A stretch of DNA of 64,000 bases from a virus (taxonomy: Duplodnaviria; Caudoviricetes): the IMG/VR virus record IMGVR_UViG_3300044695_004869. One strand, 5' to 3'. The notes beneath the pieces are model-generated. The model had not been told where the DNA came from and did not search any database. It saw only the letters and a list, made by a program, of their open reading frames with translations. Positions 1 to 53,326 of the stretch are shown in pieces. Numbering within the stretch: the first letter of the stretch is position 1; each line of letters starts with the position of its first letter. Position numbers and translations under genes: made by a program.

Positions 1-244
1 ATGGATATTTAACATTTTGTTTGTTTGATTTTGGTATACCGTCACTATTTTGACTACCAAATGGTGGTATTAATACAAAACTATTTGCTTGATTATAAGT
101 ACTAGAAACTTTATCGTAAGAAACTTCACTATCTCCAATTTGGAAATATGATATATTGAAATTGCCTTGAGACATTTTCAATCTACCTGTATCTGTCATT
201 CTAGTGTTAACAAGTCCTGATGTATTTTTTATTATATATGCCAT
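1..244 (-). CDS. 5' part of a virion structural protein (tail-fibre/baseplate-type N-terminus); runs off the left edge
   Basis: Not in the ORF track. Manual translation from ATG at 244 gives MAYIIKNTSGLVNTRMTDTGRLKMSQGNFNISYFQIGDSEVSY..., open to position 1. The TD.GR...G.F.I..F..GD.EV.Y pattern resembles fibre/baseplate attachment N-termini. TATTTATA lies 6 nt upstream. Confidence 0.7.
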   Translation of the reverse strand, partial: MAYIIKNTSGLVNTRMTDTGRLKMSQGNFNISYFQIGDSEVSYDKVSSTYNQANSFVLIPPFGSQNSDGIPKSNKQNVKYP

Positions 245-250
245 TTTGTA

Positions 251-258
251 TATAAATA
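251..258 (-). promoter_or_regulatory. TATTTATA late-promoter-like motif
   Basis: Same motif recurs upstream of most structural genes in the window. Confidence 0.5.
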
Positions 259-263
259 GTTAA

Positions 264-2327
264 TTATTGAATTTTTGGTGGTTTAGGATTAACAACTCTT
301 ATTGTATCACAATCATTATTAATTCTCACATTGTTTATGAAAATATAATATGATGAAGTTGCAACAAAACAATGTGGTGTTGGTAATATAGGTGAAATCG
401 TGTTAGTAAATGACCCACCTATTGTTGTTCCAAATGTCATATTTAAACTAACCCAAGTAAATTGTTTTGTTGTATTATATTGGAATGATCCTTGACAAGG
501 GAATGGTTGTGGTATTGGTGAAAGTTGATTCAATACCGGTGGTGGGGTATAAAGAACTGGAACACCATTAACATTTAAAGTAACCGTATTATTATAAGTC
601 GCACTTGATGGAGAAGGACCAACATTAAACGTATTTTGATGTATAACATCAAAAGTAACTGTAGTACCAATAGGTAATGAAGGAGAAATACTCACTCCAA
701 ATGTATTACCAGGTAAATAAGACATAGTTAAAATATAATTAACGGATAGTGTTGGAGCAGATAAAGACACAGTTTCTGTATATGTAAATCCTGAAGAATC
801 TCTTACATAAACAACATAAGTACCTTGACATAAATTATTATAAATTGTTGTTGGTGCGTAAGTACTTCCCCCATTAATTGAATAGGTATATGGTGGTGTA
901 CCACCAAAAGGAGTTAATAACAAACTTCCATCACACCCACATTCCGGATTATTAACAACTATATTTAAATTAGGGGTACTTATTAGTTGACATAACCCTA
1001 AAACCGCAGTTATTGATAATATTCTATTTGGTAATGTTGACCCTAAAGAATCCCAACCACTAAGTGGTGGTGTGGCAGGATTTGTATTAATTATTTGACC
1101 TGTAGTCCAACCAGATATTTCCCATTGATTATTTGATTCATTCCAAACAATATCTAACCCATCCGTAATATCTGTCCAAGTAGGATAATCCCCAATATAT
1201 CCATTAAAATCAAATTGATAATATTCCACAAAAGAAGTTTGTTTATCCCCTCTAATAATTGTAATACATATATCTTCATAAGATGGTAAAGGTTCTTGAG
1301 TTGTTGTTGTGGTGGTGATTGGTGTTTCAGCACTTAAAATACAAGTGGTATACGCCGTAAAATCACCATAATAATCAGTAACGACTGAACTATATTCCCC
1401 CACACCAATATTACTTAAAGATTGAGATAAAGATCCATTTTCCCAAACAACTTCATATGGAGGAGTTCCCCCTGTTATTCCTAAAGTTATTGCCCCATCA
1501 AAAGAATCCGCACTTGTAGGATCCACGGTAAAACATTCAACCCCAAGAGGAAAAATAGTTATTACAGAACATTCATTTTTTGGTTCAATTGGTGGGATAG
1601 GGGGGGCAAATGTTGTTGTGGTTGTTACAACGGGTTCAGTTGTTGTAGTTGTAATTACAGGACAATCAGGACAATCACCATTATTAATTACCTGAACATC
1701 CCCACCTAAAATTTTAATCCCACTTGAACTACATAATGAAATACCTGTTTGGTATTGAATAAAATATGGTGATTTTTTAGTTTCACCACAACAAGGTGTA
1801 AATTCAATTGAAGTTTTAACATTTGGTGCCGATTGGTTAGTTACAAAATAATTTACACAACAACTGTGATCAACAATACAGTTATTACAACTATTATATG
1901 GGGTACTATCAAAAGAAACAACACTAACATTTTCAGACCCATTTACACTACAAGAATGTGTATTTACGCTACCGATACTTATTAACTCATAACAACCTGT
2001 TTTATAGTTATTAGGATTTGACGATGAGATCGCCTGATCAAAATATATTGTGTCACCAATTTGATAAGTACTAAACGGATATTGATCACTTCCATCAAAA
2101 TCAATAATCTCCCCGTTACAACAACTTTGAAAACAATACCTGAAATCCTCTTTACCTAAATTAAGTACCGTAATAAATACGGCTGGCGACACAACACTAT
2201 TACCATTTATATAATAAGAAACATTTGGTAATAAATCCATTGATTTACTAACCCCATTACCATCAACAAATGTGAAGTTATTGTATATAACCGGGTTTAT
2301 ATTTTCTACCTTATATATTATCGCCAT
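264..2327 (-). CDS. Cys-rich modular virion decoration/adhesin protein with two SprB-like repeats and poly-Thr linkers
   Basis: DGAITLGITGGTPPYEVVWENG and CDGSLLLTPFGGTPPYTYSING...NLCQGTYVVYVRDSSG match SprB-type repeats. TTTTT linkers are present, and two Cys modules are shared with other ORFs in the window. Confidence 0.7.
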   Translation of the reverse strand: MAIIYKVENINPVIYNNFTFVDGNGVSKSMDLLPNVSYYINGNSVVSPAVFITVLNLGKEDFRYCFQSCCNGEIIDFDGSDQYPFSTYQIGDTIYFDQAISSSNPNNYKTGCYELISIGSVNTHSCSVNGSENVSVVSFDSTPYNSCNNCIVDHSCCVNYFVTNQSAPNVKTSIEFTPCCGETKKSPYFIQYQTGISLCSSSGIKILGGDVQVINNGDCPDCPVITTTTTEPVVTTTTTFAPPIPPIEPKNECSVITIFPLGVECFTVDPTSADSFDGAITLGITGGTPPYEVVWENGSLSQSLSNIGVGEYSSVVTDYYGDFTAYTTCILSAETPITTTTTTQEPLPSYEDICITIIRGDKQTSFVEYYQFDFNGYIGDYPTWTDITDGLDIVWNESNNQWEISGWTTGQIINTNPATPPLSGWDSLGSTLPNRILSITAVLGLCQLISTPNLNIVVNNPECGCDGSLLLTPFGGTPPYTYSINGGSTYAPTTIYNNLCQGTYVVYVRDSSGFTYTETVSLSAPTLSVNYILTMSYLPGNTFGVSISPSLPIGTTVTFDVIHQNTFNVGPSPSSATYNNTVTLNVNGVPVLYTPPPVLNQLSPIPQPFPCQGSFQYNTTKQFTWVSLNMTFGTTIGGSFTNTISPILPTPHCFVATSSYYIFINNVRINNDCDTIRVVNPKPPKIQ

Positions 2328-2355
2328 TTAAGTTATTTGTTTAATATATAAATAA

Positions 2356-3336
2356 TCAATTTATTGTTTTTTGAATAAATGATTTCATTACTTCAATATA
2401 TTTTATTGTAGTACTGTTCTTTTCAATGTAATCAAAATGTGATGGATTCTCTTTCAATTTTTCTATTGGATCAACATTTATATATTCACCCTTATAAAAT
2501 TTAGTACCTCTCAAATTATCCGTAACTCCAGCCATATGTAAAATTGGTCTTTCTTCGTAGATTTTTATATCATCTGTCGCCCAAGAAAAATTTAAATCAT
2601 CCACTACTTTGGTTTCATAATTATGTAACCATAAATTCCATAATAAAGACCACATTTCCGCAGTCCAAAATTGTATTTCACCAGGACTTATTGGATGTCT
2701 TTTATGATAATCATGCATTTGTTTATATAATGGAACACAATCTAAATATATTTTTTCCCAAAGTTCATACGTCATATTTTTTAACAAATATTGACCACCA
2801 CCCGAACTTTCTTGATTTGTTTTTATGACATCAACATCCAAACCAACAACATCCGCCATTTCTTTTAATAATTGACCTTTTTCTGATTTAGGATGAGCTC
2901 TTTCATATCTATCACAACAATCGGTTATATAATTGTATCCAATATAACCTATGGTGTCAGATAAATAACAAACATTATCTTTCATCAATTTATCAAAATC
3001 AGGCAATTCCCTAAAAATAATGTCGGCATCATGTAAGAAAAATACTTCACCATATTGGGGATGTTCATATAACCATCTTGATATTAAATATGGTTTAATA
3101 CTTGGGATATAATTTTTACCAATTCTTTCATCATAATAAAAATGTACATTAAACCCATAATCACATAATTCTAAAGCCCCTTGTGATGGTTCTTTTTGTC
3201 CATTAGTTAATCCGAAAATAACGTGAATTTGACATGGGTTAATTCCTTTTTCAATAAAATTATGAGTATAAAGTTTTACTTGCCAATGAAAATATGGTAC
3301 GTCAGGTTGGGCAGTAACAAAAATGATATCCTTCAT
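2356..3336 (-). CDS. Putative GT-A protein O-glycosyltransferase (SERGT1/GT96- or HPAT/GT95-like)
   Basis: Ordered motifs YFHWQ, YIPSIKP..I..WL, FLHDADIIFR (DxD), SGGG, FWTAEMW, KVVDDL and PILH parallel those recalled for plant peptidyl-serine alpha-galactosyltransferase. No signal peptide or transmembrane segment is seen. Confidence 0.65.
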   Translation of the reverse strand: MKDIIFVTAQPDVPYFHWQVKLYTHNFIEKGINPCQIHVIFGLTNGQKEPSQGALELCDYGFNVHFYYDERIGKNYIPSIKPYLISRWLYEHPQYGEVFFLHDADIIFRELPDFDKLMKDNVCYLSDTIGYIGYNYITDCCDRYERAHPKSEKGQLLKEMADVVGLDVDVIKTNQESSGGGQYLLKNMTYELWEKIYLDCVPLYKQMHDYHKRHPISPGEIQFWTAEMWSLLWNLWLHNYETKVVDDLNFSWATDDIKIYEERPILHMAGVTDNLRGTKFYKGEYINVDPIEKLKENPSHFDYIEKNSTTIKYIEVMKSFIQKTIN

Positions 3337-3377
3337 GATATAAAAGATATGTAACTTTTTAATAAAGTGAATTTATT

Positions 3378-5954
3378 TTACGCACTACAACTATAAGATG
3401 CAATACAAGCATCACAATCTCCAACAAATGTTATACCCGACCAACTTAAGTTAGGGGATTGAGGGTCTAATGATTGTACTTCGTAACATTGATTATCTGT
3501 ACCAATTATAATAGATCCAAGAGATGTGGATGTTGGTAAAATTACCCATTTTTTAGTTACACTGTCACAACAATATATTACCTCAAATACCGAGAAATCA
3601 CCACTTTTTGTTGGTGTCATAGTTGGGGTTTTAGTTACTGTTGGGGTTAGAGTTTTAGTTACTGTTGGAGTAGGTGTTAGAGTTTTAGTTACTGTTGGTG
3701 TTAGAGTTTTAGTTATTGTTGGAGTTGGTGTTAATGTGTTTGTTGGTGTAATAGTTGGTGTTGGTGTTATTGTTGGAGTTGGGGGTGTAACGTCACATTG
3801 TACACAAGAAATATCATAATTAATGATTAAATTAATAATGACTTTAGCATCCGCTAGTGTGTTAAATTTTGTTGGGTTACAACTTTTGTTAACATCTTTA
3901 CAATCATTAACTATAGTTATTTTATTTTTGGTAATATCTATATCTACTTCACCAATATCGGGGTAAGATAATAACACACTCTTTACAATATTAGCCCATT
4001 CAGTATCTGTTGGGTAATCATATATTCCTGTTGAGGTATAAAATAAATTTTGTTTAACCTCTCCATTAACAATTGTTTCAATTATAAATTGACCACTATT
4101 AACAATACAATTTAGATCATTTTCTGTCAAATCAAAAAACCCTTCATTATACATTTGACCAATACCTCTTCTACCATCAATTCCACTATTAACAAAATTA
4201 GTATCACTTATGTTATAAACCTGATAATTACCTAAAAGTATTGTCCCACTTAAAACAACAGTTTTATTATATGTACACCCAGAACTATCCACAACTTGTA
4301 AACTATATGTCCCGGCACTTAAATTTGTCACAGTTGATCCAGTTTGTAAATTTACATTTGAGGACCAATTATAGGTAAATGGTGGTGTACCACTACTAAT
4401 AAAAGCAATTATTTGACCATCATTACCATTAACAGGTTGAATTGTTAATAAATTAAAAAATACAGAACTTGATGGTCCGACATATGTTGTTGTAATTTGT
4501 GAACATCCATTCGCGTCTGTGACAGTAACTGTATAAAATCCTGATGGTAAGTTATTATAACTATTAATAGGTGAAACCGCATATCCTGTTATTTGATAAC
4601 TATATGGTAATGTTCCACCAGTCGTAGTTAATATCTGAATAGACCCATTATTTAATCCACAAGTTGTATTAGTTGTTAACGCCGTTATTGAAAATAAATT
4701 AACATTTGTAATAGTTGCCGACCCCGTATAAACACAACCCGAATTATTATCTATTAATATTGTATATGTATCTGAAGGTAAATTACTAAAAGTAGCATTA
4801 GTTCCAACCGTAATAGCATTAACCGTATTACCTGAAGAATCCAATATTGTATAAGTAAAAGTACCTGTTGGGGACCCGGTGTTTACTAAAATATTTATAG
4901 TTCCATTATTACCACAATTTGAGTTTGTTGATGTTATGGATGATACCGCAAATCCATTTGGTGTTATTAACGATATTGATTGAGTGTCGCTACATAATCC
5001 CGCATCTTTAACCGTAACTACTAAAGTACCCGAAGGTAGGTTATCAAACGTATAAGTGTTAGAAAAAGTTATTGACGTATCACCATTAGATCCCGAAAAA
5101 AAGAATGGAGCTGTTCCACCAGTTACCGTCACTTCAACGGCACCATCACTATTAAAACACGTACTTCCGGTCGTTGTAAATGACGCAATTCCTATAGGTG
5201 GTACATTATTAACAGATGCCCCCTCTGTAACAGAACATCCATTTGAATCTGTAACAGTAACGGTATAAAACCCAACAGTTAATCCCGTTGCCGTTGATCC
5301 AGTTTGACCATTACTCCAAAGATATGTGTACGGTCCAACACCTGTTTGACCCGTAACAAATATTTTACCTGATCCACCGGAAACATTACAACTAGCATCA
5401 TCAACAACATAAAACCCATAATCTAAAGTTGTTGATGTTAAAATAACAACACTTGCACTTAATCCTGTACAACCACCACCATCATCACCAATTATATAAT
5501 AAGTTCCTCCCGATAAGTTTGTAAATGTTAATCCACTTGTTGATGTTGCTCCACTAGTTATATAACCATTTGTTGTTTCATATAATAATCCGGTGCCGTA
5601 ACCATAAAAAGGCGTAAATCCAAAAGTTATTTCACCATTATCAACCCCACAAGTAGTATTTAATGCCGATTCAACACTTATTGTTGATCCTGAAGATATT
5701 GGTATATTAAGATATTCGGTAGTCGCACCAGAAAGACAAGAATCTTGTATCGCTAAAACATAGGTATCGGCAGAAAGACCACTATAATAATATGTGGTTG
5801 TTGCCGCGGATGTTGGTAATAATCCTGTTGATGTAACCTCATAAACAGTATACGGAGACGCACCTCCCGCTATTTCAACATAGATTTCACCAACGTTTGT
5901 ATTAGTACAATCGCCGGTTATGTATAAATTATATAGTATTTGTCCACAACTCAC
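3378..5954 (-). CDS. SprB-repeat virion adhesin/fibre with a (TP)n mucin-like stalk and C-terminal Cys-rich module
   Basis: About 7 SprB-like repeats (e.g. GVGPYTYLWSNGQTGSTATGLTVGFYTVTVTDSNGC), a roughly 60-aa Thr/Pro tract and a CC..CY..C..C..C tail. The GTG start overlaps the upstream TGA. Confidence 0.75.
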   Translation of the reverse strand: MSCGQILYNLYITGDCTNTNVGEIYVEIAGGASPYTVYEVTSTGLLPTSAATTTYYYSGLSADTYVLAIQDSCLSGATTEYLNIPISSGSTISVESALNTTCGVDNGEITFGFTPFYGYGTGLLYETTNGYITSGATSTSGLTFTNLSGGTYYIIGDDGGGCTGLSASVVILTSTTLDYGFYVVDDASCNVSGGSGKIFVTGQTGVGPYTYLWSNGQTGSTATGLTVGFYTVTVTDSNGCSVTEGASVNNVPPIGIASFTTTGSTCFNSDGAVEVTVTGGTAPFFFSGSNGDTSITFSNTYTFDNLPSGTLVVTVKDAGLCSDTQSISLITPNGFAVSSITSTNSNCGNNGTINILVNTGSPTGTFTYTILDSSGNTVNAITVGTNATFSNLPSDTYTILIDNNSGCVYTGSATITNVNLFSITALTTNTTCGLNNGSIQILTTTGGTLPYSYQITGYAVSPINSYNNLPSGFYTVTVTDANGCSQITTTYVGPSSSVFFNLLTIQPVNGNDGQIIAFISSGTPPFTYNWSSNVNLQTGSTVTNLSAGTYSLQVVDSSGCTYNKTVVLSGTILLGNYQVYNISDTNFVNSGIDGRRGIGQMYNEGFFDLTENDLNCIVNSGQFIIETIVNGEVKQNLFYTSTGIYDYPTDTEWANIVKSVLLSYPDIGEVDIDITKNKITIVNDCKDVNKSCNPTKFNTLADAKVIINLIINYDISCVQCDVTPPTPTITPTPTITPTNTLTPTPTITKTLTPTVTKTLTPTPTVTKTLTPTVTKTPTMTPTKSGDFSVFEVIYCCDSVTKKWVILPTSTSLGSIIIGTDNQCYEVQSLDPQSPNLSWSGITFVGDCDACIASYSCSA
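3600..3790 (-). repeat. Degenerate coding tandem repeat encoding TPTPTITKTLTPT-type units
   Basis: Repeated gttactgttgg/agagtttta units on the plus strand, translating to a Thr/Pro tract. Confidence 0.9.
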
Positions 5955-8900
5955 GGATTACATAGTATATCAAAGTTTATCCCAACATTTAATTCAAAGT
6001 TTTGGGTAGTATCTAACGGTAAACAGTTATTATTATATATAGTTATAGTTTGATCATCGGTGTTAATAATATAATCCAAACCATAATCAAGTAAACCAAC
6101 TAAAGCGTCATATAGACCATTAATCCAGTCATTTGCCGTTGGAACACTTAACGATGGGTTTGAATATCCAACACCATTAAAGAATTCATAAATTATTATT
6201 GGTGTCCCGTCAATTCTAATATCAATATACCAATCACTTTCCAATGTATTCAATAAACAATCATTATTAATATCCACATTAATATCATTTCCATAAGTGG
6301 TTAATGAACTACCTAAAAGAGCCCCAAAAGACGTAATAGATGGATTTGTATCCCAAGGATATAATCCAACAACAGTTTGCTGTACAGGACAGTCATATGA
6401 GAATATTTGAGTAATTAACTTACAAGGTTTACAAGGGACAGGAATAATTTCACAACCTCTTTGTCTTCTCCACACAAATTTTTGTCTGTGGAAAATTGAA
6501 TTCTCGTACTTAACACCAGTATTCCATATTGTTGTTGCCGGAATCATTTGTTCAACTAATCTAATCCAATAATCGCCCATACCATTAACATAATCAATCA
6601 TTGTTTGATAATTGAAGTTATCGTTAGGAACATTAATTGCTTGTTCGGACTCTAAATATTTCCAATATATTGATGATAATGTTGGATATCCACTAGTTTT
6701 ACCATCGGTCATAAACTGTCTATTCCTTACATTTATCATATTCTTCCAAAACGTTTGAGCAAACTCAAAAAATGTTTTTTGTTTTGGTTTTGGTACTATT
6801 ACCGTCCAATCTATACCTCCTCTGTTTGGATATTCAATATTTGGATATGGATTACAATAAGTGGGGTCTACATAGAATAAACCTTGTTCCGGTATTGGGT
6901 AATTATATCTTCTTGACATTGACCAAACATCATAAACCAACCCTTGAGCAGGATTCATAAAAAGATCAACATTTTTTACATTTATAACCAATCTATCATC
7001 AGAAACCCCATAGTAAGCATTAAAGTTACCATCAAAATTTTTTCTTAGATATTTTTCATTATCAGTCCAACTTTTTTTGTTATCCACAGTTTTTCTAAGG
7101 TTAAACCCTAAGTTCATATAAGGGAAACTACGATATCTTTCCAAATATTCTTGACCATAATTAAATGGTAATAATTTTGTTTGATAATTAGGGTTAGCCC
7201 CCGTAAACACACTATTTGTTAAATCTACTTGTTCCGGCATCCTATGTTGTGGGGTTGATTCAAACCAACCTCCTCCAATTTGAAAGAAATACGTATCTGT
7301 TGGTACAGGCATACTTGGGAAACCATAACTATCAATCGGATAATCATTTATCGTTAATGATACATCCTGACTAATTGTTGTTGTTGTAAACCCTGTGTAC
7401 TGAACACCCATTATAGAAAACAAATCATTCGTATCTAAAACAGGTAATTCTTGGGAATAAGTTCCTCCCGATATTTGAGCATATTGTATATTAAATTGTC
7501 TTAAATTAATTTTTTGATCAGCAACATATACGTGTTCATTAAATTCAGTTAATGCTTCAGGAGCTCCAACCATTCTTAATAAAATTTCTATTGATTTTCT
7601 TGTACCTTTTGATTTGAATAAAAAAGCGGAATTTAATATTAAGTTTCTAAAATATTGGTAGTTTAATTCCTCAGGTGTTTGACCTTGAGGCAAACCTGTA
7701 AAAGCATTACTACCGTCACTAAATACAGCATTTAATAACTGATCATTAGTGATCGGGGATATGTTAATATTCCACCCTAGTGTTTGTGCTAAGTTTTTAA
7801 GTAATTGTGATGGTATATCATTTTTAACATTATAATTAACTGAATTCATGTTGGCAAGAGCCGTAATGAATTTTCTTGTCTCATCAAAACTTCTACCATA
7901 AATTTGTAAAACCTTTTCCATTTTTCTATCCGAAGTATCAAATTCTTTGATTGCATCTGCGGTTAAAAATCTTGTTATTAAGTTAGTTTTATATAAATCA
8001 ATATATTCAGCAATGGTATTTAATTTTGTTAAATAGTTTGTAAATTTTGGTGAAACAATATCTAAGTTCCACGTACCAATTAATGGAAATATTGCAACTT
8101 CTTGACCATATGAATATGTACCGTCTTCATTCTCTATAGGTACTTGAAAATACGCACTATAAATCGGAACCATGTTTCTATTAAGTAGGAAATTTTCTAC
8201 CTGATCTAAATTTTCATTAAAAACTTTATTTACATAAAGTTGTTTTGGTCTTATTAAGAAGTTATCACTACTTGTTGTATTACTTAAAAATGGATTACCA
8301 TTAACGTATATTTTAAAAACTGTATCTGTTGGTTGCGCAGGTATAAAATCAGAAACAGGATATTCAACATCATTTAAAAATAACGAGTATTTCAAATATT
8401 GAGTTGTAAAGTTTCTTAAATAAGAAACAGGAATTTCTCTTAGTTCTATATTTCTTGTGGCATCAACAGTGTAGTCAATACCAAATGGATTCCTAATAAC
8501 TGAAATAGGTATTTCAAAATATGTTTCATCCTCAACACTATTATATGATGCATTTTGTACTGTTAAAGATGTAACAAAATTAGGTTGAGTACTTTGTATG
8601 TCTAACGCAGCCGGAAAATAATTTATTATATTACTTACCGAAGTTGACATTCTTTTTGTTAAAGACCCAAACATGGTAAAATTAGTTACCTGACTTAAAT
8701 CAAAATTAGGATAAACCCTAAAATTATCGGCAATTAATTTTTTTGATTCCTCAATACTATTAATATTTAACGTATCTAAAGATATTGGATCAGAAAAAGA
8801 TCCTATAGAAAATGTTCTATTTTGTTTTTCGGTAATATTTGTTGTAAACTCAAAATTTGCTTGGGTAAGACCTCCCCCATCAACTAATTGTAACCCAACT

Positions 8901-8968
8901 AAGTTGTCAGAAAAAGTGCCTTGACCGCTGGCAGGCTGAGGAGGACATTTATATTTATTTACCGCCAT
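5951..8968 (-). CDS. Baseplate wedge / tail protein (P2 gpI / T4 gp7-like core)
   Basis: LLKNLAQTLGW...ILNSAFLFKSKGTRKSIEILLRMVG is the LA..LGW...KGT..I..L motif of gpI-like wedge proteins. It lies in the baseplate cluster. Confidence 0.65.
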   Translation of the reverse strand: MAVNKYKCPPQPASGQGTFSDNLVGLQLVDGGGLTQANFEFTTNITEKQNRTFSIGSFSDPISLDTLNINSIEESKKLIADNFRVYPNFDLSQVTNFTMFGSLTKRMSTSVSNIINYFPAALDIQSTQPNFVTSLTVQNASYNSVEDETYFEIPISVIRNPFGIDYTVDATRNIELREIPVSYLRNFTTQYLKYSLFLNDVEYPVSDFIPAQPTDTVFKIYVNGNPFLSNTTSSDNFLIRPKQLYVNKVFNENLDQVENFLLNRNMVPIYSAYFQVPIENEDGTYSYGQEVAIFPLIGTWNLDIVSPKFTNYLTKLNTIAEYIDLYKTNLITRFLTADAIKEFDTSDRKMEKVLQIYGRSFDETRKFITALANMNSVNYNVKNDIPSQLLKNLAQTLGWNINISPITNDQLLNAVFSDGSNAFTGLPQGQTPEELNYQYFRNLILNSAFLFKSKGTRKSIEILLRMVGAPEALTEFNEHVYVADQKINLRQFNIQYAQISGGTYSQELPVLDTNDLFSIMGVQYTGFTTTTISQDVSLTINDYPIDSYGFPSMPVPTDTYFFQIGGGWFESTPQHRMPEQVDLTNSVFTGANPNYQTKLLPFNYGQEYLERYRSFPYMNLGFNLRKTVDNKKSWTDNEKYLRKNFDGNFNAYYGVSDDRLVINVKNVDLFMNPAQGLVYDVWSMSRRYNYPIPEQGLFYVDPTYCNPYPNIEYPNRGGIDWTVIVPKPKQKTFFEFAQTFWKNMINVRNRQFMTDGKTSGYPTLSSIYWKYLESEQAINVPNDNFNYQTMIDYVNGMGDYWIRLVEQMIPATTIWNTGVKYENSIFHRQKFVWRRQRGCEIIPVPCKPCKLITQIFSYDCPVQQTVVGLYPWDTNPSITSFGALLGSSLTTYGNDINVDINNDCLLNTLESDWYIDIRIDGTPIIIYEFFNGVGYSNPSLSVPTANDWINGLYDALVGLLDYGLDYIINTDDQTITIYNNNCLPLDTTQNFELNVGINFDILCNP

Positions 8969-9876
8969 TATGAAGTTATATTTGAGAAGTTTTTACTAAA
9001 ATCAATGTTATCACCTCTATCTTGTCTTACCTCATATAATAAATTATTAAATTGATCTCTAATCTCATAAAGGTTGTATTGTTTGTAGATATTGTTATCA
9101 CTATCGTAAATGGTGTATATACCATCATCCATAGATTTGGTTTGATTACCGTATAACGCAATCGCCAATGTTGATATATCGTGTTCAACAATTTCAATTT
9201 CAACCGTTGTTGGGTTGAAGAATGTATTTGAGATTATAATATTTTGATCAGGTTGTCCAATAAATGGTGTTGCATTTGGTTTATTGGTTGGTGATGATGA
9301 TGGTGATAACGTACAAAAAATCAAGTTTGTTGACGCTTCTACATATCTATATCTTATCGCTTTTTGACTAGTGTTTGTTAAATTTTCAACCACAGGTTCA
9401 CAATAAAATGATGAGGTTATTATCCTAAAGAAGTTAGGAATTTTTGTTCCATCAGAATTTAAATATTCAACTCTAAAACCAACTAAACCTTGATTAATAA
9501 ATTTGTTTCTAAAGTTAGATGGTACATTATTGATGTCTACAACGATACCTTTAACATTTGGTAATGCAGATAAAATACCACAGTCAAGAATTTTAGTTCT
9601 AATTTCCGCAGGTCTTATATATAGTGTGTAAATCCCTAATTGGTTAAATTGATCGGTTGGTAATTTAAGATTATATAAACCCCCAAGTATTTCAACATTC
9701 GCATTACCACCAGTAGTTCCATTGTGGAAATATGGTCGTAATACAGTACTAGCATTTAATTTTGTTAGTACGAAATTGTCCGTTTCGTCTCTTGATGGTG
9801 TATAATTTAAAATTATTTCTACGTCATCAGGACTCACATCAGCACTTCTTATTGTTCCGTAATTACCTGTAGCCAC
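8968..9876 (-). CDS. Conserved hypothetical virion structural protein
   Basis: 302-aa beta-rich ORF with a GTG start, TAATG coupling to the next gene and a TATTTATA motif upstream. Confidence 0.6.
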   Translation of the reverse strand: MATGNYGTIRSADVSPDDVEIILNYTPSRDETDNFVLTKLNASTVLRPYFHNGTTGGNANVEILGGLYNLKLPTDQFNQLGIYTLYIRPAEIRTKILDCGILSALPNVKGIVVDINNVPSNFRNKFINQGLVGFRVEYLNSDGTKIPNFFRIITSSFYCEPVVENLTNTSQKAIRYRYVEASTNLIFCTLSPSSSPTNKPNATPFIGQPDQNIIISNTFFNPTTVEIEIVEHDISTLAIALYGNQTKSMDDGIYTIYDSDNNIYKQYNLYEIRDQFNNLLYEVRQDRGDNIDFSKNFSNITS

Positions 9877-21817: not shown

Positions 21818-24250
21818 TTACGATGAACACCCAAAACACTCAAACTCTGAACTATCAGGTTTTGGTGGTAAGTTCATATTTGTATAATCAACTTTTGGTG
21901 GTTCTGGTGTAACTTTTGGTTTATCTCTTTTAGTCATATCCAACGCCAAGTGTTTCGCCCCTGTCGAAATTGCTTTAGTTCTAACATAATAACATAAAGT
22001 TTTCAATCCTTTTTCCCATGAATGGAAGTGTGATGAGGTAATTTTTGATAATGTTGGGTTTGACATATAGATATTCATTGATTGTGATTGATCAATAAAT
22101 GGTGCTCTGTCTGCCGCCATGTCAATAAGTTGTTTTTGCGAAATCTCCCAAATTGTTTTGTATTTAGGGATTAAATGTTCAATTCGTTTTACTTTCTTAT
22201 TGTAATTCTTATCCTCAGGATCTAAATAATTATTAAAATTGATGTTTTGAATAGAACCTTCATTCATGATGATTTCATTTTTTAAGTCCTCAGACCATAT
22301 TCCAATTTTCTCAAAGTCAGCGATTAGATATTTGTTTACAATCATAATCTCACCTCCAACCACACGTCTGTTGAATAACGCCGAGTGAGCCGGTTCAGTC
22401 ATTTCAAAAGATCCGGTAATTTTTGCGGAAGATGCTACAGGCATTTGTGCCGTAAATAATGAGTTACACACTCCATATTCACTAACATCATTCTTTAATT
22501 TATTCCAATCCCAATATCCTGATAAATCATTTTCAGTTAACCCCCACATATCGTATTGGAAAACTCCTTTTGACATTGGCGACCCTTTAAAGAATTTATA
22601 TGGTTTGTACTTACCTTTTTTACACAAATCATTACTTTCATAAATCGCCCCATAATAAATGGTCTCAAAAATTTGTTTATTTAAAGTTTTTGCTTCTTCT
22701 TCAGTAAAGATTAAATCAAGTAAATAAAACACATCTGCTAATCCTTGAGTACCAACTGCAATTGCTCTTTGTTCTAACCCACCTTTTAATCCTTTTTGTG
22801 TTGAGTAGTTATTAATATCAACAACTTTATTCAAAGTTCTAACAACTTTTCTAACCTCTTCAAATAACAATTGGAAATCAAATTTATTACTTTTAACGAA
22901 GTTTTTTAACACGATTGAAGATAGTGTACAGATCGCAGTTGTTTCTTCATCTGTGTATTGATAAATTTCATTACATAGATTTGATTGTTTGATTACCCCA
23001 ATGTTTTGATGATTTGTTTTTCTGTTAGCACTATCTTTAGAACATAAATATGGGACACCTGTTTCAACTTGAGATTCAATAATTTTAGTCCATATTGTTT
23101 GTGCTGAAACTTTTTTACCTAACCCTATTTGTACCGCAGTATCATATACCTGTTCGTATTCATCACCATAACATTCTTGTAATGGTTTTAAACCAGCCTT
23201 TTTAATGTCATTAGGACAGAACAAATACCAATCGGTATTTTCTTTAACCGCCCTCATAAAGTTATCAGGTAACCAAAGTGCCGTAAATAAATCACGAGCC
23301 CTTAATTCTTCCGCTCCGGTGTTCTTTTTAATGTCCAATAGATCCAATATATCTTTGTGCCAAGGTTCAAGATAAATTGCTGCCGATCCAGGTCTACGAC
23401 CTTGTTGATTAAAGAATCGTAATGACTCATTAACAATTTTAAGGTATTTTAACAAACCTCCCGCATATCCACCTGAACTTGAAATCCTACTTTCTTTACT
23501 TCTAATGTTTGACATTGATAAACCAATGCCAGCCGCGTCAGAAGAATACGTTGAAATGTCGTTCAAAGTATGTAATAAACCATTACGTGAATCTGAATTG
23601 TTGTAATGTAATACACATGATGCTAATTGAGGTACTTTTGTACCCGAATTAATCATGATTGGGGTTGCCTTAGATATAAGTTGATTTGATAGTGATTTGT
23701 AATACTCTACCGCCTCAACAAAAGTATCTGTAACCCACAATGCTATTCTCATATACATATGTTGTGGTCTTTCCACCGTAATACCATTAGGTCTCTTTAA
23801 AAGATACATTTCTTGTAGTGATCTCCAAGCAAAATAATCAAAATTATAATCATTATCGTGATTAATAACCGCATCAATTGTATCTTCACCATACTCTTTA
23901 ATGGTTTCAATTAATTTTTCATTAATGATACCATCACCATAAAGTAACATCATAGTTTCAGAAAAACTAGGATTTGTCTCTTTATGATATGATGAGATAG
24001 CAACTGAAGACGCCAATCTTGAGTAATCGTGGTGACTACCGGTATATGATGCGGCAATCTCATATACAAGTTTATCTAATTCTTTTGTTGTTATTTCACC
24101 TTCAGTAGGTACTGAAGTAATAACTTTAATAAAAATCTCATCTGAATTTACGTTCAGACCTTTTGCCGATCGTTTAACACGATTGTAAATTTTTTGTGGG
24201 TTAAATGATACATTATCCCCATCTCTTTTAAGTATTTTAAGTGACATCAT
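21818..24250 (-). CDS. nrdA: Ribonucleoside-diphosphate reductase class Ia alpha subunit with ATP cone
   Basis: N-terminal ATP cone, ATP(I)MINSG, QLASC, SNLCNEI, AQMPVASS, KTLCYY and C-terminal CFGC redox pair. Confidence 0.97.
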   Translation of the reverse strand: MMSLKILKRDGDNVSFNPQKIYNRVKRSAKGLNVNSDEIFIKVITSVPTEGEITTKELDKLVYEIAASYTGSHHDYSRLASSVAISSYHKETNPSFSETMMLLYGDGIINEKLIETIKEYGEDTIDAVINHDNDYNFDYFAWRSLQEMYLLKRPNGITVERPQHMYMRIALWVTDTFVEAVEYYKSLSNQLISKATPIMINSGTKVPQLASCVLHYNNSDSRNGLLHTLNDISTYSSDAAGIGLSMSNIRSKESRISSSGGYAGGLLKYLKIVNESLRFFNQQGRRPGSAAIYLEPWHKDILDLLDIKKNTGAEELRARDLFTALWLPDNFMRAVKENTDWYLFCPNDIKKAGLKPLQECYGDEYEQVYDTAVQIGLGKKVSAQTIWTKIIESQVETGVPYLCSKDSANRKTNHQNIGVIKQSNLCNEIYQYTDEETTAICTLSSIVLKNFVKSNKFDFQLLFEEVRKVVRTLNKVVDINNYSTQKGLKGGLEQRAIAVGTQGLADVFYLLDLIFTEEEAKTLNKQIFETIYYGAIYESNDLCKKGKYKPYKFFKGSPMSKGVFQYDMWGLTENDLSGYWDWNKLKNDVSEYGVCNSLFTAQMPVASSAKITGSFEMTEPAHSALFNRRVVGGEIMIVNKYLIADFEKIGIWSEDLKNEIIMNEGSIQNINFNNYLDPEDKNYNKKVKRIEHLIPKYKTIWEISQKQLIDMAADRAPFIDQSQSMNIYMSNPTLSKITSSHFHSWEKGLKTLCYYVRTKAISTGAKHLALDMTKRDKPKVTPEPPKVDYTNMNLPPKPDSSEFECFGCSS

Positions 24251-25225: not shown

Positions 25226-26617
25226 TTAATTGTTTTTTGTTTCGTCTTTTTGTTTTTGTTGTCTTTTTTCCAACAATTCTCTAACTCTTTGTCTTTGTCT
25301 TTCTTCTTGTTTTTCCTCTAACCCTAAGAATGTCATTGAACTTTCAGTGTCAATATCAATCATCGCATTATCAAATTTACAATTTTCAAAGACAACACCA
25401 TCATCACCGATTCTTGATTTAGTGATGGCAATAGTTGCTAATTTCATTTCTTTTTGTTGTAATGTCTTTGCTATGGAAATGATAACGTGTCCAACTTGTG
25501 CTTTCTTAATAGATCCACCCATTTGGTCAGTGGTAACAACCTCAGAAGATATAGAACTTCTATTCCCTTGTGTTGCTGTCCATCCAACTAAATTAAGTTC
25601 GTGACACATCGCTTCAAATCCTCTCATTACAGATCCTTCACTCTTCCATTCATCCCCCAAGTTCTTATCAGGAACAACACAGTCAATGTAATCAAGTAAA
25701 ACCATATCAACCTTCAAACCATCTGCAATCATCTTTCTAATTTGATTCTTAATTTGTAACATTGTTACAGTATCAGATGGTAATTTTTTCATGATTAACT
25801 TATTACTCATGGTTTCCTCAATCTCTTTAACTTTTTGGATAACTACATCTCTTTTTTCTGACAATTCGTCAGGATGTATCTTAGTCCAAAGGGTGTAATG
25901 TTTTCTTTGAATTACCTTTGGGTTATCCTCAAAAAAGATTTGTAATACGTTAAATCCTAAGTTAAATGCGTGGTTAGCAATTTTAGTTAAGACAGTTGAT
26001 TTACCAACCCCTGTTGGTGCTAAAATCACACCGATCTCTCCTTTAGCCAAACCACCTTTCATTAGTCGGTCAATACCAGGTATTCCCATTGGAATTGGAT
26101 GTCTGTAATCGTCATCTAACACCTGATCCATGTTGGAGAAAACATCCAAAATACTTGTATCTTTTTCTCCAACTTGTAATGCTCCTCTGACCATTTCTTC
26201 AAGGGCATCGTAGTTCTCAAATTCACCACCGTCAATGATCTTTTGTGCCTTACCCATTACTTTCTGTAACTCTTGTTGTTTACAGAACTTTAATGCCTTT
26301 TCTTGTACAAAATCCACTCCGTCGATAGGTGCATCCTTGATTTTCTTAATTGTGTCTAACACAACTTTAGACGCAATTTCTTGTTGTAATTCAGATTTTG
26401 TGATCTGTTCTAATGTTTCAAATGATGGTGTATGATTGTATTTTGAATAATACTCTCTGATCATTTGTACAATTATTTTAAAGTATTTATTCTCAAAATA
26501 ATTGTTCTCAATCACATCAATAATTGAGTGTGAAAAGTCCTTGTCTAAGACCATTTGATTTAATAATTGTAATTGGAATACATTCCCCAAATACTCAAAA
26601 TTTTTGTTTGTCGCCAT
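25226..26617 (-). CDS. dnaB: Replicative SF4 helicase (DnaB / T4 gp41-like)
   Basis: Walker A APTGVGKS, Walker B LDYID, and TATQGNR motif. Confidence 0.92.
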
Positions 26618-38138: not shown

Positions 38139-41100
38139 TTAATTAAATTTTACTTTACCATTGTATTTATCATCATTATTTAAATTTTGTTTAGAATATA
38201 ATTTTTTAATTCTATCAACTCCAGTCGCGTAGTTTGGTTCATTTTTATTTGTAGTATATCCAACTTTTGCTTCAAAAGGAAGTATTTCAAAACTTTGGAA
38301 CTTTTGATATTCGGGACTTGCCTCATAATCCGCAAAAATTTTGTCTTCATTATCTCTTTGTAATTTACATTTAATTTTATAAAAATCAAACCTAGCCTTT
38401 AAATCATTAACTAAATTTTCATATGGTTTTATTTTATCTAACGATGTTAAACTCTCAATAAAAGAATTGTATTTATTATCATCTAACATTATGTCTGACA
38501 TAACAATATAAAATCTTTGTTCTTCTTGTGTTGTAAATGACTTAAACCATTTATCCGGTAAGTTCCATAGATTTACGGGGGAAGGACTATATTCAATCGA
38601 TCCATTATTCATAATATAATTCGCGGACATTACATCAAAGAATTCTGTTATTGTTTTACCAACTTGGTTTGTATATACATCTAATATTGCGGTTGTAACC
38701 GTTGTTGCACTATCACCAGTTAAAGAATAAACTTTAGGTTCACCGCTTTCCAAAAGAATACCATCAAATTTTGATATAACAACATCCGTTTTTCTAAACG
38801 TATAATTAAAATTTTCTTGATAACTTGTTAAATCATTTATTGGTCCAATTATAACATTATTAATTTCAGCATTTCTTGTCCCTAAGATTTCTTCCATTTT
38901 ATTTTTAATTTGTCTTTGTTGCGCATTAGAAAATAAAGATTGTGGTTGGACAATTTCTTTAAGGACTGGCGACAATTCATTTTTACAATCTTTTACCGCC
39001 TGATCAACAATATCTTTTACTAATTTTTCAACACTGTCAGGTTTACCATAAATTTTTAATGGGGTACTGTTTTGAAATTCACTAATATTTCCATCAAAAT
39101 ATTTTCTTTTATAATTAACAAGTTGTAAAATACCATAATTACTTACATCTTTTATACTTTTTAATTGATTATAGATAGTTGAGAAAAATTCTTTGGTCCC
39201 TGTAGATAATTCAGAGATGAGGTTGTTATAATCAATCTCACCTGTCTCAATAGTTCCATCATCGTTTGCATTAGTACTTATAATTGTACCAACCGTTTGA
39301 CCACCTCTATTAGAAACCTCATTTGGTATTTGTGCAACAGTTAATGGTGCGGACCCATTTGAGATTAATTTGCCAACTATTTTCTCATCTCTTTCTGAAG
39401 TATCTTCAGTTGCAATTGCTCTTTCATCGTAGATTTCTGTGTTAGCATAATAATTAAATGATAATGCGTTTTGAAGTTGTTCTACCGGTCCCGCTAATCC
39501 ACTACCACCAATAAAATCAAAACCTAAACTAACTTTAGCAATCATAGGTTGTACTCCGATTCCCTCAGGGTTGATATCAAACACTAACGGATCATAAGTG
39601 ATACTAATACTGTTAGGTATAATTTTAGTATGGTAAAAGTCACCAATTCTTAAAACTAATACAGGTGGAGCACCAAATGATGTGTTTAACGCATCATTAT
39701 GTTTTGGTCTACCATCAGGTCCGATAACCGGAATTGTTTGACCCGGTCTCATACATTGATTTAAAAATGTTAATCTCGCATTTAAACCTTCAGGTGTTGT
39801 TGAGTGAAATGCCGGACTAAAATATTTTATTTTTTCCTTAATGGTATCATATACCATAGGATTAGTTTCTTTTATAACCTCAAAATAATCACACTCACTA
39901 AACAAATATCTTAATATTTTTTTAGAAATTCCTTCTTTAACTTTTTTAATAGGATCGGGTCTTCTAACAGGTTTTGGACCAGGAGGTGTTGGAGGTGTTG
40001 GTGGAGATGGTGGACCCGGAGGTGGAGGTGGTGGTGGTCCTGGAGGTGGTGATGGAGGTGGTGGTGGTCCCGGAGGTGGTGATGGAGGTTTAGGTACACT
40101 TGGTTCTATTCTTGCAATACGAACTCTCCTACAAGCCATTGCAGGTATTGAGTACCACTGAGCAATACTTGAATTATTAATATCACCTGATGTTGGATTT
40201 TCTGTTGGTGTCATCGTAATATTTTTTGTACAATCAACCTCTTCAAATATACTTCCATCTTTTTGTGGTATTGTTATTTCTTCCCCATTAAAATTTTCAA
40301 TAAAAGTTATTTTACCTTCACTTTCTAAAGTGGCAATAGTTTTATCACCAATTGTTTGATTCCTAAACCATTGTGTTACCGAATTTATTCTTCTTTTAGA
40401 AAGGTTTCTATTATAATTAATTTTAGCAGGAGCAGAAGCCGACCCTTGTAATTCTATTTTAACCGAACCATTTTTATCTACAATAATTTCTTTTAATTTA
40501 TTTAAAAAATCCGTTTGAATTGTCTGATAATTCCCAATAATTATATCATTATAGAATTTTTGTATAACACTTTTATTTTCGTACTTTTTAGTACCAACAT
40601 ATACATATTCAGGTGGGTTAGTTATATATTTAGTTCCTTTTACTGAAAGATACTGATTATACCAATAATCATATGGTTGACTCGCGGTAACCGCTTCACT
40701 ATATTGCCCTTCAGGATAATCATTATCAAAATAGAATGAATAATCTATAAACTTTTCAATACTTGTTATATCAACACTTTCTGTTTCATCCGTATTAATT
40801 GTATCATTATCTTCATTTTCAGGACCGGGTTCCGACCCATCACCACCTTCAGTATTACCATTACCATTAGTACCAATATTAGTTGACTTATCTTTACTAA
40901 TATTAGAATATATTGAACCCAACTCTTCCTCAGTTAATCTTGGTTCATTTAATAATTGTTGGTAAGTATATAACTCACTCGTCGGAATAGTATTAAACTT
41001 AGCCGCTAAATCATATATGTCGTATTTAACACATCCCGCAAAGAATGAATCAATAATTGAATCAACTTCTTTAGCCGGTCTATTCGCCAATTGTTTCTCA

Positions 41101-50600: not shown

Positions 50601-50968
50601 TTAACTCCGATTGTGGAACAATCTACGTTTGCTGTAGTTAATATTGACCAAGATGGTCCCGCATCATAACCTGAAAGTCCTAAGATTCTCGTTACGAATA
50701 ATTGATTAGATTGTTGTAAATAAGATTTTGCGATATACGCAGCCTCATATTTTGGGATTTGTGTATTCACAAATTTTTCAGGTGTAGTTCCACCAAAATA
50801 GGTTTGGAACTCGTCAAAATTTCTGATGAAGATTGGTTCAAAAGCGGGACCTTTTAAGGTCTCCCCTGCGATACCTAAAGTTGTAACACCAACACTCTGT
50901 GCCACAAAACTTAAATCTACTTCAGAAGTATAGACGCCTGGTGATACAAATACTTTACTATTAGCCAT
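47657..50968 (-). CDS. Tail sheath protein (gp18-like) with a large Cys- and Thr-rich insertion
   Basis: FVSPGVYTSEVD, GETLKGPAFEP, YYPWV, PWFAAAGYTRG, RINPI, WGNKT and RINVRRL. Confidence 0.95.
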   Translation of the reverse strand: MANSKVFVSPGVYTSEVDLSFVAQSVGVTTLGIAGETLKGPAFEPIFIRNFDEFQTYFGGTTPEKFVNTQIPKYEAAYIAKSYLQQSNQLFVTRILGLSGYDAGPSWSILTTANVDCSTIGVNCFSSVTVNCIPQCVIPLELPFVVDFSGCTNSTSSIEYLSNFPSEILDILDVSYETPQGGTSTLDENIRDLIFNVMTSTNPLTAEDNLISYFGSVDGNDYSALTVNGTYTATTNVFGVPAIPFDQNNLCDGANTSWYYALFDNNGGGSYSGFSFWSIVTGITNITPITTTTTAPTTTSTTTNPCVTPVPTTTTTTTIPVPVECYSGSVMGVIYYYTGTSYTNYDDMVVATFRSRGISTYVNGNNPVYEVSNLNNVSLDMTGQYAGVLQNPYLPFGINVTNNDGVNFNFEASFSTSDAEYLTKVFGTTNFAKPRTVVPLFVEERFQSLLNYGWRKGFIRGLKPVLVDLDSAQSNASDSIGWYLDRYQTPSSPWVVSELRGTKVYNLFKFYTIADGDAANYEIKISIGNISFANGTFDVFVRDYYDTDTNPVVVEKFTNCSMDPSQNNFIAKKVGTLDGEFQLNSTYIMVEMNEDAPVDALPCGFEGFNFRTYGSATSPFPVYKTKYDFPGEVIFNPPFAAPIQSPGDNVRRTYLGISNNNSWDGNYFEYVGKQNPISTCDLEGGEWNYRSRGFHMDKDASGITISDAFTTSGTPRFDVGDANFSSEPNNPTNPYYRIYSRKFTLLVQGGFDGWDIYREHRTNSDRYVLGRIGYLNGACPDNRYPNAVGWGAFKQIAVGDGTQDFANTDYYAYLLGIQTFANPEAVNINVFVSPGIDYVNNSDLVEATIDMIENDRADSLYITTTPDYNLFLPTTTGGDGIIYPQEAVDNLEQTGIDSNYTATYYPWVLTRDTVNNTQIYIPATAEVTRNLALTDNIAFPWFAAAGYTRGIVNSIKARKKLTQEDRDTLYQGRINPIATFSDVGTVIWGNKTLQVRESALDRINVRRLLLQARKLISAVSVRLLFDQNDEQVRQDFLNSVNPILDAIRRDRGLYDFRVTVSSDVADLDRNQMTGKIYIKPTRSLEFIDITFYITPTGASFEDI

Positions 50969-52758: not shown

Positions 52759-53267
52759 AGTCCTCTAAATTCATTTGGTCCAACAGGTGATGCACTTATT
52801 GTACGATAAAAAGGTTTATAACCTGCATAGGTATGTTTATTGTCAGATACGACACGACCATCATTATTAACCGTATAGTATCTAACTAACGTTTCAGTTT
52901 CATAATAACCAATGTAATCACCAAAATTAATATCAATTCCTAAATCATCTAAAGTTTTTTGGTAAACTGAAATTCTTATATTACCCGGTTCCATTTGATC
53001 CACTCTTGTTGAACCTAATAATTTATTTTCAGGTGCCGATACTTGTACAAAAGCATTAAATTCAATTGGAGGTAAAAACTTAATACCATCTGATACAGTT
53101 TCACCATATACATCATCTGTTTTTGTTTTGTATCTATCAACACGATATAGTACACAGGTAAAATTCATATCACCCACCAACCATTCTTCTCCCATTGAAA
53201 TGTCAAGGTCGAAATCGTTTGATCCAAAAAATTTACCTATCCTTGTAATAGGAACTTTATTTGCCAT
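52755..53267 (-). CDS. Head closure / neck protein (gp14-like)
   Basis: T.TDDVYGE....KFLPPIE, L.DLGIDI..GD.I.Y. Located in the neck cluster. Confidence 0.6.
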   Translation of the reverse strand: MANKVPITRIGKFFGSNDFDLDISMGEEWLVGDMNFTCVLYRVDRYKTKTDDVYGETVSDGIKFLPPIEFNAFVQVSAPENKLLGSTRVDQMEPGNIRISVYQKTLDDLGIDINFGDYIGYYETETLVRYYTVNNDGRVVSDNKHTYAGYKPFYRTISASPVGPNEFRGL

Positions 53268-53326
53268 ATTTTCGGTATTTATTGATAAATATCTTTTTTA
53301 TTGTTATTTTTATTAAAAAGGAAAAT

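Follow-up and report, generated by a model that had tools for sequence, protein, structure and literature searches.

Could a large phage attach sugars to its own virion proteins by means of an enzyme that resembles those glycosylating plant extensins? This question is raised by an open reading frame (ORF) of 326 amino acids (aa) that is located among structural genes in a stretch of 64,000 nucleotides (nt) of Caudoviricetes DNA (IMG/VR record IMGVR_UViG_3300044695_004869); we refer to this whole stretch as the window. An initial annotation of this DNA had proposed that the ORF encodes a plant/algal-type glycosyltransferase (GT) that modifies low-complexity tracts of the virion. From sequence comparisons and a structural model, we conclude that the protein is probably a cytoplasmic, phage-encoded protein O-glycosyltransferase that modifies threonine-rich tags on virion proteins. 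With considerably less assurance, we lean toward a wider view, in which the enzymes of its family (phrog_4417) and portable tags made of poly-threonine (poly-Thr) or threonine-proline repeats, (TP)n, would together form a widespread modular system for virion O-glycosylation in phages of Bacillota and Bacteroidota, ranging from 36-kb temperate siphophages to 300-kb jumbo myophages. On this view, capsid, tail-tube, sheath, and fibre proteins that share no homology would each have acquired such a "glyco-tag" independently. What the GT95/GT96 enzymes do for the extensins of plants and algae, the phrog_4417 enzyme would do in viruses of prokaryotes, and the two might also be related by descent.

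Thr-Rich Tags and the Transferase Gene Occur Together

The proposal is supported by a comparison of prophages that share one tail-tube family and either possess or lack the transferase gene. For this comparison, we collected the SPP1-type tail-tube family of Enterococcus phage phiFL1A from 37 prophage loci (species-representative genomes) and five phage records. Eight loci were excluded for short flanks, one of which is poly-Thr-tailed and ends 680 bp upstream of the gene. All transferase-positive loci encode a poly-Thr C-terminal tail both on the tail tube (6/6) and on the major head protein (6/6). Among the transferase-negative loci with enough flanking sequence, such a tail was found in 0/28 under a strict rule and in 1/28 under a loose rule, the single case being a marginal S/T-rich tail. 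The association between tag and transferase yields a Fisher p of 5e-6 for loci that are phylogenetically non-independent. Homologous proteins can be aligned up to their last conserved residues, where they either stop or run on into the tag. Untagged homologues are present in Javan47, phiJL-1, and ATCC8014, with no transferase gene in the stretch examined from the capsid to the tape-measure gene. The carriers of the tag are non-homologous: they include a phrog_840 major capsid protein versus that of phiFL1A, and tail tubes of phrog_88, phrog_6686, phrog_14018, and the SPP1 type; the tagged head proteins of phiFL1A and R3.3/L089 have no detectable mutual relation. The co-occurrence of the transferase with Thr-rich virion proteins that the initial annotation had envisaged is found within one tail-tube family, and it gains support from other, unrelated phages.

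In the cultured phages that we examined, the transferase gene always resides in the structural module. It directly follows the gene for the major tail protein in Enterococcus phage phiFL1A, Clostridium phage FA88, Staphylococcus phage SA2, and Arcanobacterium phage TPWB06, and that for the major head protein in Lacticaseibacillus phage R3.3; it is found two genes upstream of the head-tail connectors in Enterococcus phage VPE25 and after a small tail protein gene in the Herelleviridae phage Iacchus. VPE25 carries a poly-Thr tail on its phrog_88 major tail protein, while the tags of Iacchus are on gp071 and gp072. SA2 and TPWB06 possess tags on the major tail (tube) protein, on an ORF overlapping the 3' end of its gene, and in the head maturation protease, and two upstream ORFs of Chryseobacterium phage MA9V-3 contain long poly-Thr tracts. 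When a strict poly-T rule was applied, FA88 appeared to be an exception; this was rejected upon inspection, which revealed Thr-rich C-terminal tags on two virion proteins, the head protein and the tail tube ending in the same tag.

The tags of individual phages have features of their own. Two virion proteins of FA88 (L126:6207-6605 and L126:9333-9938) both end in TTTT(T)IAPTTTTSTSQ plus one residue, and two virion proteins of R3.3 (L088:767-1684 and L088:3995-4621) both end in a T-run that is followed by (S)SHA. Such near-identical tags on two virion proteins within one phage suggest that the tag is transferred or duplicated as a whole. In SA2 (L127:9111-9924) and TPWB06 (L128:9158-9920), the poly-Thr-rich ORF is read in a different frame from the major tail protein gene, whose 3' end it overlaps. 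This arrangement resembles a programmed frameshift such as the one that extends the SPP1 tail tube (gp17.1*), and some of the tail-tube subunits might thereby receive a far longer tag. The poly-Thr tract near the C-terminus of the head maturation protease (phrog_36211; L127:4868-5977 in SA2, L128:4912-6033 in TPWB06) is surprising, since such a protease is generally assumed not to stay in the capsid.

Another 160 loci, in all of which (160/160) an ORF matches the family profile, came from metagenomic viral contigs; at 60% identity, they group into six lineages. A tract is encoded no more than two genes away from the transferase in 74/80, 44/67, 9/9, 1/2, 1/1, and 1/1 loci of the six lineages, and only 7/1062 far ORFs of the second lineage contain one. 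When each of 14 lineages was represented by a single locus, tract-bearing ORFs amounted to 13/56 within two genes of the transferase versus 11/190 beyond four genes (p 4e-4). A tract ORF is present in the locus of all transferase-positive lineages (14/14), and tracts occur in 2/707 ORFs of transferase-negative loci. Every other enzyme-bearing group that we examined (Enterococcus, Staphylococcus, Clostridium, Lactobacillus, Chryseobacterium, and the six metagenomic lineages) has Thr-rich virion genes nearby.

The Transferase and Its Predicted Fold

The transferase ORF of the window is intact, and the motifs listed in the initial annotation follow each other in the order given there: YFHWQ (residue 15), HNF (25), YIPSIKP (76), HDAD (102), SGGG (178), FWTAEMW (223), KVVDDL (243), and PILH (264). 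The DxD motif that had been noted corresponds to D103-A-D105. In an alignment of 59 relatives (A1), D105, H267, G270, and K282 are invariant and D103 is conserved to at least 90%; both aspartates are invariant in 65 longer relatives. The protein matches phrog_4417, a PHROG family of unknown function, over its full length (expectation value (E) 3e-70; residues 6-319 on positions 3-290 of the 293-position profile). This family is large, with 1335 relatives at E <=1e-3 in 90% clusters and 826 representatives at 50% identity. Scans of the window ORF against Pfam (E up to 1) and NCBIfam gave no match, the Pfam family Glyco_transf_8 did not match the protein either, and sequence searches of the PDB with the window protein and with the family profile returned chance matches only. 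The transferase is without a hydrophobic segment (maximal 19-residue Kyte-Doolittle mean 0.54) and must therefore act in the cytoplasm. Longer members of the family are fused to GT7C, PF11397 N-acetylglucosamine-transferase, GT6, GT2, GT29, O-FucT, and GT25 domains, which fits a glycan-initiating enzyme whose product is extended by others. Other fusion partners of some family members (alignment A2, P0125-P0264) are radical SAM/SPASM, methyltransferase, and F5/8 type C (discoidin) domains.

An AlphaFold2 model of the window ORF, built on the alignment of the 59 relatives, reached a predicted local distance difference test value of 97.2 and a predicted template modelling (TM) score of 0.94; it opens straight with the first strand of the fold. 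Foldseek searches with this model against the Swiss-Prot part of the AlphaFold database returned the Arabidopsis peptidyl-serine alpha-galactosyltransferase as the best match (E 1e-10, TM 0.63), followed by the hydroxyproline O-arabinosyltransferases RDN1, PLENTY, NOD3, and HPAT1-3 (TM 0.55-0.63); the galactinol synthases of family GT8 reached a TM of about 0.45 in the same search. Among the clusters of the AlphaFold database, HPAT-like algal proteins rank directly after the protein's own family, and Pfam HPAT is found in 10-58% of the members of the neighbouring clusters in the ESM Atlas. A search of viral models gave high scores only for members of the family, including Orf49 of Lactobacillus phage LP65. 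The best solved structures are the retaining GT-A enzymes WbbM, glycogenin, the catalytic domain of UGGT, and the blood-group transferases (E 3e-7 to 4e-6, TM 0.39-0.45, sequence identity 9-12%); all the close matches are to predicted structures and not to solved ones. The fold of the model is closest to that of the GT96/GT95 peptide O-glycosyltransferases, a GT-A fold with DxD, and in the comparison with GT96, GT95, and GT8 it is the plant serine galactosyltransferase (SGT1) and the HPAT enzymes that stand nearest. The label "plant/algal-type" chosen in the initial annotation holds at the level of the fold; at the level of sequence it does not, as Pfam HPAT is left unmatched. The relation of the fold to GT8, GT95, and GT96 suggests a retaining mechanism.

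Candidate Acceptor Tracts in the Window and in Related Jumbo Phages

The Thr/Pro-rich tracts of the window were located by script and are listed in Table 1 together with the genes that carry them. They exceed chance expectation because only four of the 44 window ORFs carry one and two of these flank the transferase. Tracts had been reported in at least five virion proteins; we recovered them at all positions, but that at 39966-40103 is a poly-proline stretch with few Thr residues, and the protein encoded at 62403-63893 can only be called a putative virion protein. As acceptors, the Thr runs and (TP)n repeats are likely and the SPPP tract is unlikely.

Table 1. Features of the transferase locus and of tract-bearing genes in the window (positions in nt).
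Position	Strand	Feature	Basis
264..2327	(-)	687-aa SprB-repeat protein	Pfam SprB repeat PF13573, E 4e-11
1299..1316	(-)	T6 run, aa 338-343 of downstream SprB protein; candidate acceptor	tract script
1611..1652	(-)	Two T5 runs, aa 226-239 of downstream SprB protein; candidate acceptor	tract script
2356..3336	(-)	326-aa soluble GT-A glycosyltransferase; candidate protein O-glycosyltransferase	phrog_4417 profile and AlphaFold2 model
2536..2538	(-)	His267 codon (PILH..G); candidate third metal ligand as in GT8-type enzymes	invariant; role suggested by GT-A/GT8 fold relation
3022..3030	(-)	DxD codons D103-A-D105; presumed metal and nucleotide-sugar binding	conservation in relatives
3378..5954	(-)	858-aa SprB-repeat fibre/adhesin-like protein	Pfam SprB repeat PF13573, E 1e-19
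3600..3794	(-)	Long (TP)n / TPTxT tract, aa about 721-785 of upstream SprB protein; candidate acceptor	tract script
39966..40103	(-)	Poly-proline (SPPP/GPPP) tract in 1692-aa ORF 38139-43217; weak candidate	not Thr-rich
47657..50968	(-)	1103-aa tail sheath with large N-terminal extension	phrog_23, E 4e-55; Pfam Phage_sheath_1C, Phage_sheath_1
50003..50110	(-)	Poly-T/TP tract in sheath extension, aa 287-322; candidate acceptor	tract script
62403..63893	(-)	Thr-richest window ORF (21% Thr), six (TP)n tracts between Cys-containing modules; putative virion role	phrog_15511

The tail sheath had been named as one of the tract-bearing proteins, and its identity is secured by its PHROG and Pfam matches. 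The sheath profiles match only its last ~300 residues; the Thr-rich tract is part of the N-terminal extension of ~800 residues, which is kept in 78 relatives. A Thr-rich tract is present at the same position of the sheath in 78/78 full-length relatives, in 37 different versions, poly-T being exchanged for (TP)n or vice versa. The sheath tract is conserved in place and composition and not in sequence, which suggests that poly-T and (TP)n are one kind of element.

The remaining tract-bearing ORFs are less readily placed. The (TP)n tracts of ORF 62403-63893, which adjoins the DNA polymerase gene, are situated at 62595-62783, 62982-63035, and 63561-63791, and the sole match of this protein is phrog_15511, a family of unknown function. 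Both this protein (aa 357-454) and the upstream SprB protein (aa 706-782) match phrog_15511 in regions that overlap their Thr/Pro-rich tracts; the common match may reflect a shared module or only a shared low-complexity composition. The 1692-aa ORF 38139-43217 has no family match and contains a 45-residue tract of nearly pure proline; its homologue in the related genome G001 has no Thr-rich tract.

G001 is a 291-kb genome (99% complete) that is collinear with the window. Tracts are present in 11/343 of its ORFs, four of them no further than 7 kb from the transferase. Each of the relatives G001-G003 has at least four GT2 genes whose scores exceed the Pfam cut-off. In G001, one group of GT2-type matches is found at about 272-281 kb (G001:C1:271701-280704), two more are found at about 219-221 kb, and two strongly (TP)n-rich ORFs follow at 286-290 kb (G001:C1:286256-289922). 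The GT2 group and the (TP)n-rich ORFs may represent a second glycosylation island beyond the window.

The Genomic Setting of the Transferase Gene

The window is AT-rich phage DNA (about 30-35% GC) with its ORFs mainly on the minus strand, and its gene content includes tail sheath, baseplate wedge, ribonucleotide reductase, DnaB, helicase, and DNA polymerase genes. As had been described, the transferase ORF is placed between two genes for SprB-repeat proteins, both of which match PF13573. They are co-oriented with it and separated from it by 41 nt on the upstream and 28 nt on the downstream side. A scan for promoters and terminators in positions 1-9500 of the window found such sites no more often than in shuffled sequence and is uninformative with respect to an operon. 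Genes for replication and nucleotide metabolism (the large subunit of ribonucleotide reductase at 21818-24250, a DnaB-like helicase at 25226-26617, a DNA helicase at 53261-55090, and the DNA polymerase at 59526-62309) are mixed among the tail and baseplate genes and do not form a separate module. The relatives of the window are metagenome contigs of 274-318 kb encoding Bacteroidota-type domains (SprB, Por_Secre_tail). The "moraphages" described in PMC12619734 are aquatic jumbo phages whose genomes reach 307 kb; Bacteroidota are their predicted hosts, and they have four core groups of transferases. The lineage of the window may belong to them.

Proposed Function and Alternative Explanations

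We envisage that the transferase is made together with the late tail-fibre genes and binds a host nucleotide-sugar, presumably one activated by uridine diphosphate, through a site formed by the DxD motif, the histidine, and a metal ion. It would then move the sugar onto the hydroxyls of Thr (or Ser) residues in exposed, disordered Thr-rich tags while the virion proteins are still in the cytoplasm, before or during assembly. In the window phage, the likely acceptors would be found in the two flanking SprB proteins and in the sheath extension, in the form of their T-runs and (TP)n linkers; in the siphophages of Gram-positive hosts, this role would fall to the poly-Thr C-terminal tails of the major capsid and tail-tube proteins. 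Other glycosyltransferases might extend the first sugar; in the end, exposed parts of the virion would bear a mucin-like coat of glycans. Such a coat might stiffen the linkers and make them resistant to proteases, promote adhesion, or shield the virion from antibodies or host defences.

Phage glycosyltransferases can have other targets. The enzyme might modify a glycan of the host envelope (teichoic acid, cell-wall polysaccharide, lipopolysaccharide (LPS), or capsule) and thereby mask receptors or exclude superinfecting phages, with the tracts being unrelated flexible linkers. We regard this as unlikely. Serotype-changing phage transferases are well known (PMC12619734), (TP)n linkers are frequent as spacers, and the fold matches do include the O-antigen transferase WbbM in the PDB and LPS galactosyl- and glucosyltransferases in the AlphaFold database, at a TM of about 0.45. 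However, peptide O-glycosyltransferases clearly outscore the LPS enzymes in the fold search, and the transferase is without a membrane anchor. Moreover, the gene has capsid or tail-tube genes as its neighbours within late structural modules, even in phages annotated without lysogeny functions (VPE25, SA2, Herelleviridae), and the tight coupling of the transferase to poly-Thr tags on homologous proteins would go unexplained. A similarly low probability attaches to the idea that tags and transferase are coupled in a way other than as substrate and enzyme; for instance, the protein might be a tag-binding virion or assembly protein, or the host might glycosylate the tags, with the phage enzyme elongating or editing the glycan. 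Co-occurrence attests to coupling and not to chemistry, and the fusions to domains of the elongating type, together with the multiple GT2 genes in relatives, point to several enzymes in one pathway, of which the transferase need not be the first to act. Yet the catalytic DxD and His are conserved, and the nearest folds are those of initiating peptide O-glycosyltransferases. Within the structural stretch examined in 36-39 kb phages such as phiFL1A and R3.3, neither the annotation nor an ORF scan shows another transferase. As for glycosylation by the host, the known general O-glycosylation of Bacteroidota acts outside the cytoplasm, where virion proteins are absent.

That the enzyme glycosylates modified bases of the phage DNA, and thereby evades restriction, appears very improbable. 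DNA glycosylation is the classical role of phage transferases (PMC12619734), but the gene occupies structural operons away from genes of nucleotide metabolism, and no DNA transferase is among the best fold matches. Small temperate phages carry it as well; their annotated stretch shows no hydroxymethylase, for which no dedicated search was made. This idea, and likewise envelope modification and a coupling without a substrate-enzyme relation, fails to explain why, among homologous proteins, the presence of a tag follows that of the gene, and why the gene is located within late structural operons across very different lifestyles. Finally, the lack of a Pfam or NCBIfam match might be expected of a degenerate or inactive remnant, a notion that is barely credible for an ORF with 1335 relatives, conserved catalytic residues, and a very confident model, whose family is represented in 160/160 loci.

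Several observations weigh against the proposal that the transferase glycosylates Thr-rich tags on virion proteins. The Arabidopsis protein is matched over its residues 393-699, a region that is possibly not homologous to the one matched in the Chlamydomonas enzyme (37-309). Membership in GT95/GT96 is not borne out by sequence: Searches with Pfam HPAT (PF23452) miss the window protein even at E 1, find only 1/59 relatives (E 1.3e-4), and at E up to 10 are silent in three related jumbo genomes and two phage records; the control genomes are silent too. Secreted bacterial proteins often have (TP)n linkers as spacers between their domains, and those of the window could be nothing else. The clean contrast between loci with and without the gene comes from Gram-positive prophages, the transferase-negative control loci all belong to one prophage group, and the co-occurrence counts are uncorrected for shared ancestry. 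A sheath-based search for transferase-negative relatives in the jumbo lineage gave only close relatives (at least 72% identity); the link to tags is for the window, therefore, an extrapolation from Gram-positive prophages.

Implications of the Proposed Virion Glycosylation by phrog_4417 Enzymes

Phage virion glycosylation is already known as a kind of modification; for the pairing of phrog_4417 enzymes with Thr-rich tags we found no description. A full-text literature search, whose coverage leaves out most subscription journals, yielded no paper in which phage virions are connected with HPAT/SGT-like enzymes or with poly-Thr tags; one lead (PMC7698478) turned out to be irrelevant. If the proposal is correct, sugar-coated virions would be common among phages of Enterococcus, Staphylococcus, Lactobacillus, Clostridium, and aquatic Bacteroidota, some of them relevant to therapy or the dairy industry, and the immunogenicity, stability, mucus adhesion, and host recognition of such phages could all be influenced. 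A testable role would be assigned to a large family of so far uncharacterised proteins, a short transferable tag that might serve to glycosylate proteins in the bacterial cytoplasm would be defined, and a prokaryotic-virus branch would be tied to enzymes described as plant-specific. The proposal can be tested directly with cultured phages and standard mass spectrometry.

Comparison With Known Glycosylation Systems

Enzymes of the GT8/GT24/GT6 families (glycogenin, galactinol synthase, UGGT, and the blood-group transferases GTA/GTB) share the DxD motif and a distal His with the phage enzyme, and glycogenin and UGGT act on proteins, as is proposed here for the phage transferase. The resemblance is limited, however, to a TM of only 0.39-0.45 at 9-12% identity, and Glyco_transf_8 does not match. 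In functional terms, the proposed system would resemble the cytoplasmic glycosylation of the serine-rich repeat adhesins of Gram-positive bacteria, which is initiated by the GT-B enzymes GtfA/B, and the mucin-type O-glycosylation of Thr/Pro-rich tandem repeats in animals, which is initiated by the N-acetylgalactosamine-transferases of family GT27. Both follow the same logic: a low-complexity Ser/Thr tract serves as a dense array of acceptors, a dedicated enzyme adds the first sugar, and extension then produces a protease-resistant glycan brush. The phage system would be analogous to them, with an initiating enzyme from a different family.

The closest likeness at the level of the predicted fold is to SGT1/SERGT1 (GT96) and HPAT/RDN1/PLENTY (GT95), which share the GT-A architecture with DxD at a TM of 0.55-0.63 but have no significant sequence match to the phage enzyme by PF23452. 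Plant SGT1 and HPAT transfer the first single sugar onto side-chain hydroxyls of repetitive, proline-rich extensins, and other transferases then extend this sugar; HPATs have been described as related to GT8 (PMC4908140). While these plant enzymes are anchored in membranes of the endoplasmic reticulum and the Golgi (PMC4908140), the phage enzyme is soluble, without an anchor, and predicted to be cytoplasmic. The acceptors differ as well: plants add galactose to Ser next to hydroxyproline, or arabinofuranose to hydroxyproline itself, whereas the candidate acceptor in the phages is Thr in poly-T or (TP)n.

In mycobacteriophages, phage-encoded transferases are thought to glycosylate virion proteins, and glycans have been reported at the C-termini of capsid and tail-tube subunits (Freeman et al. 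2023, Cell Host Microbe, as cited in PMC12619734 and PMC13313380). By this description, the sites occupy the same place as the poly-Thr tags of the phages from Gram-positive hosts, whereas the tags of the jumbo lineage are internal linkers of fibres and sheath. The hosts differ too, since those of the phrog_4417 phages are Bacillota and Bacteroidota. In the phrog_4417 phages, two features expected of a virion-glycosylation system are found together: a transferase encoded among the virion structural genes, and candidate acceptor regions that co-vary with it.

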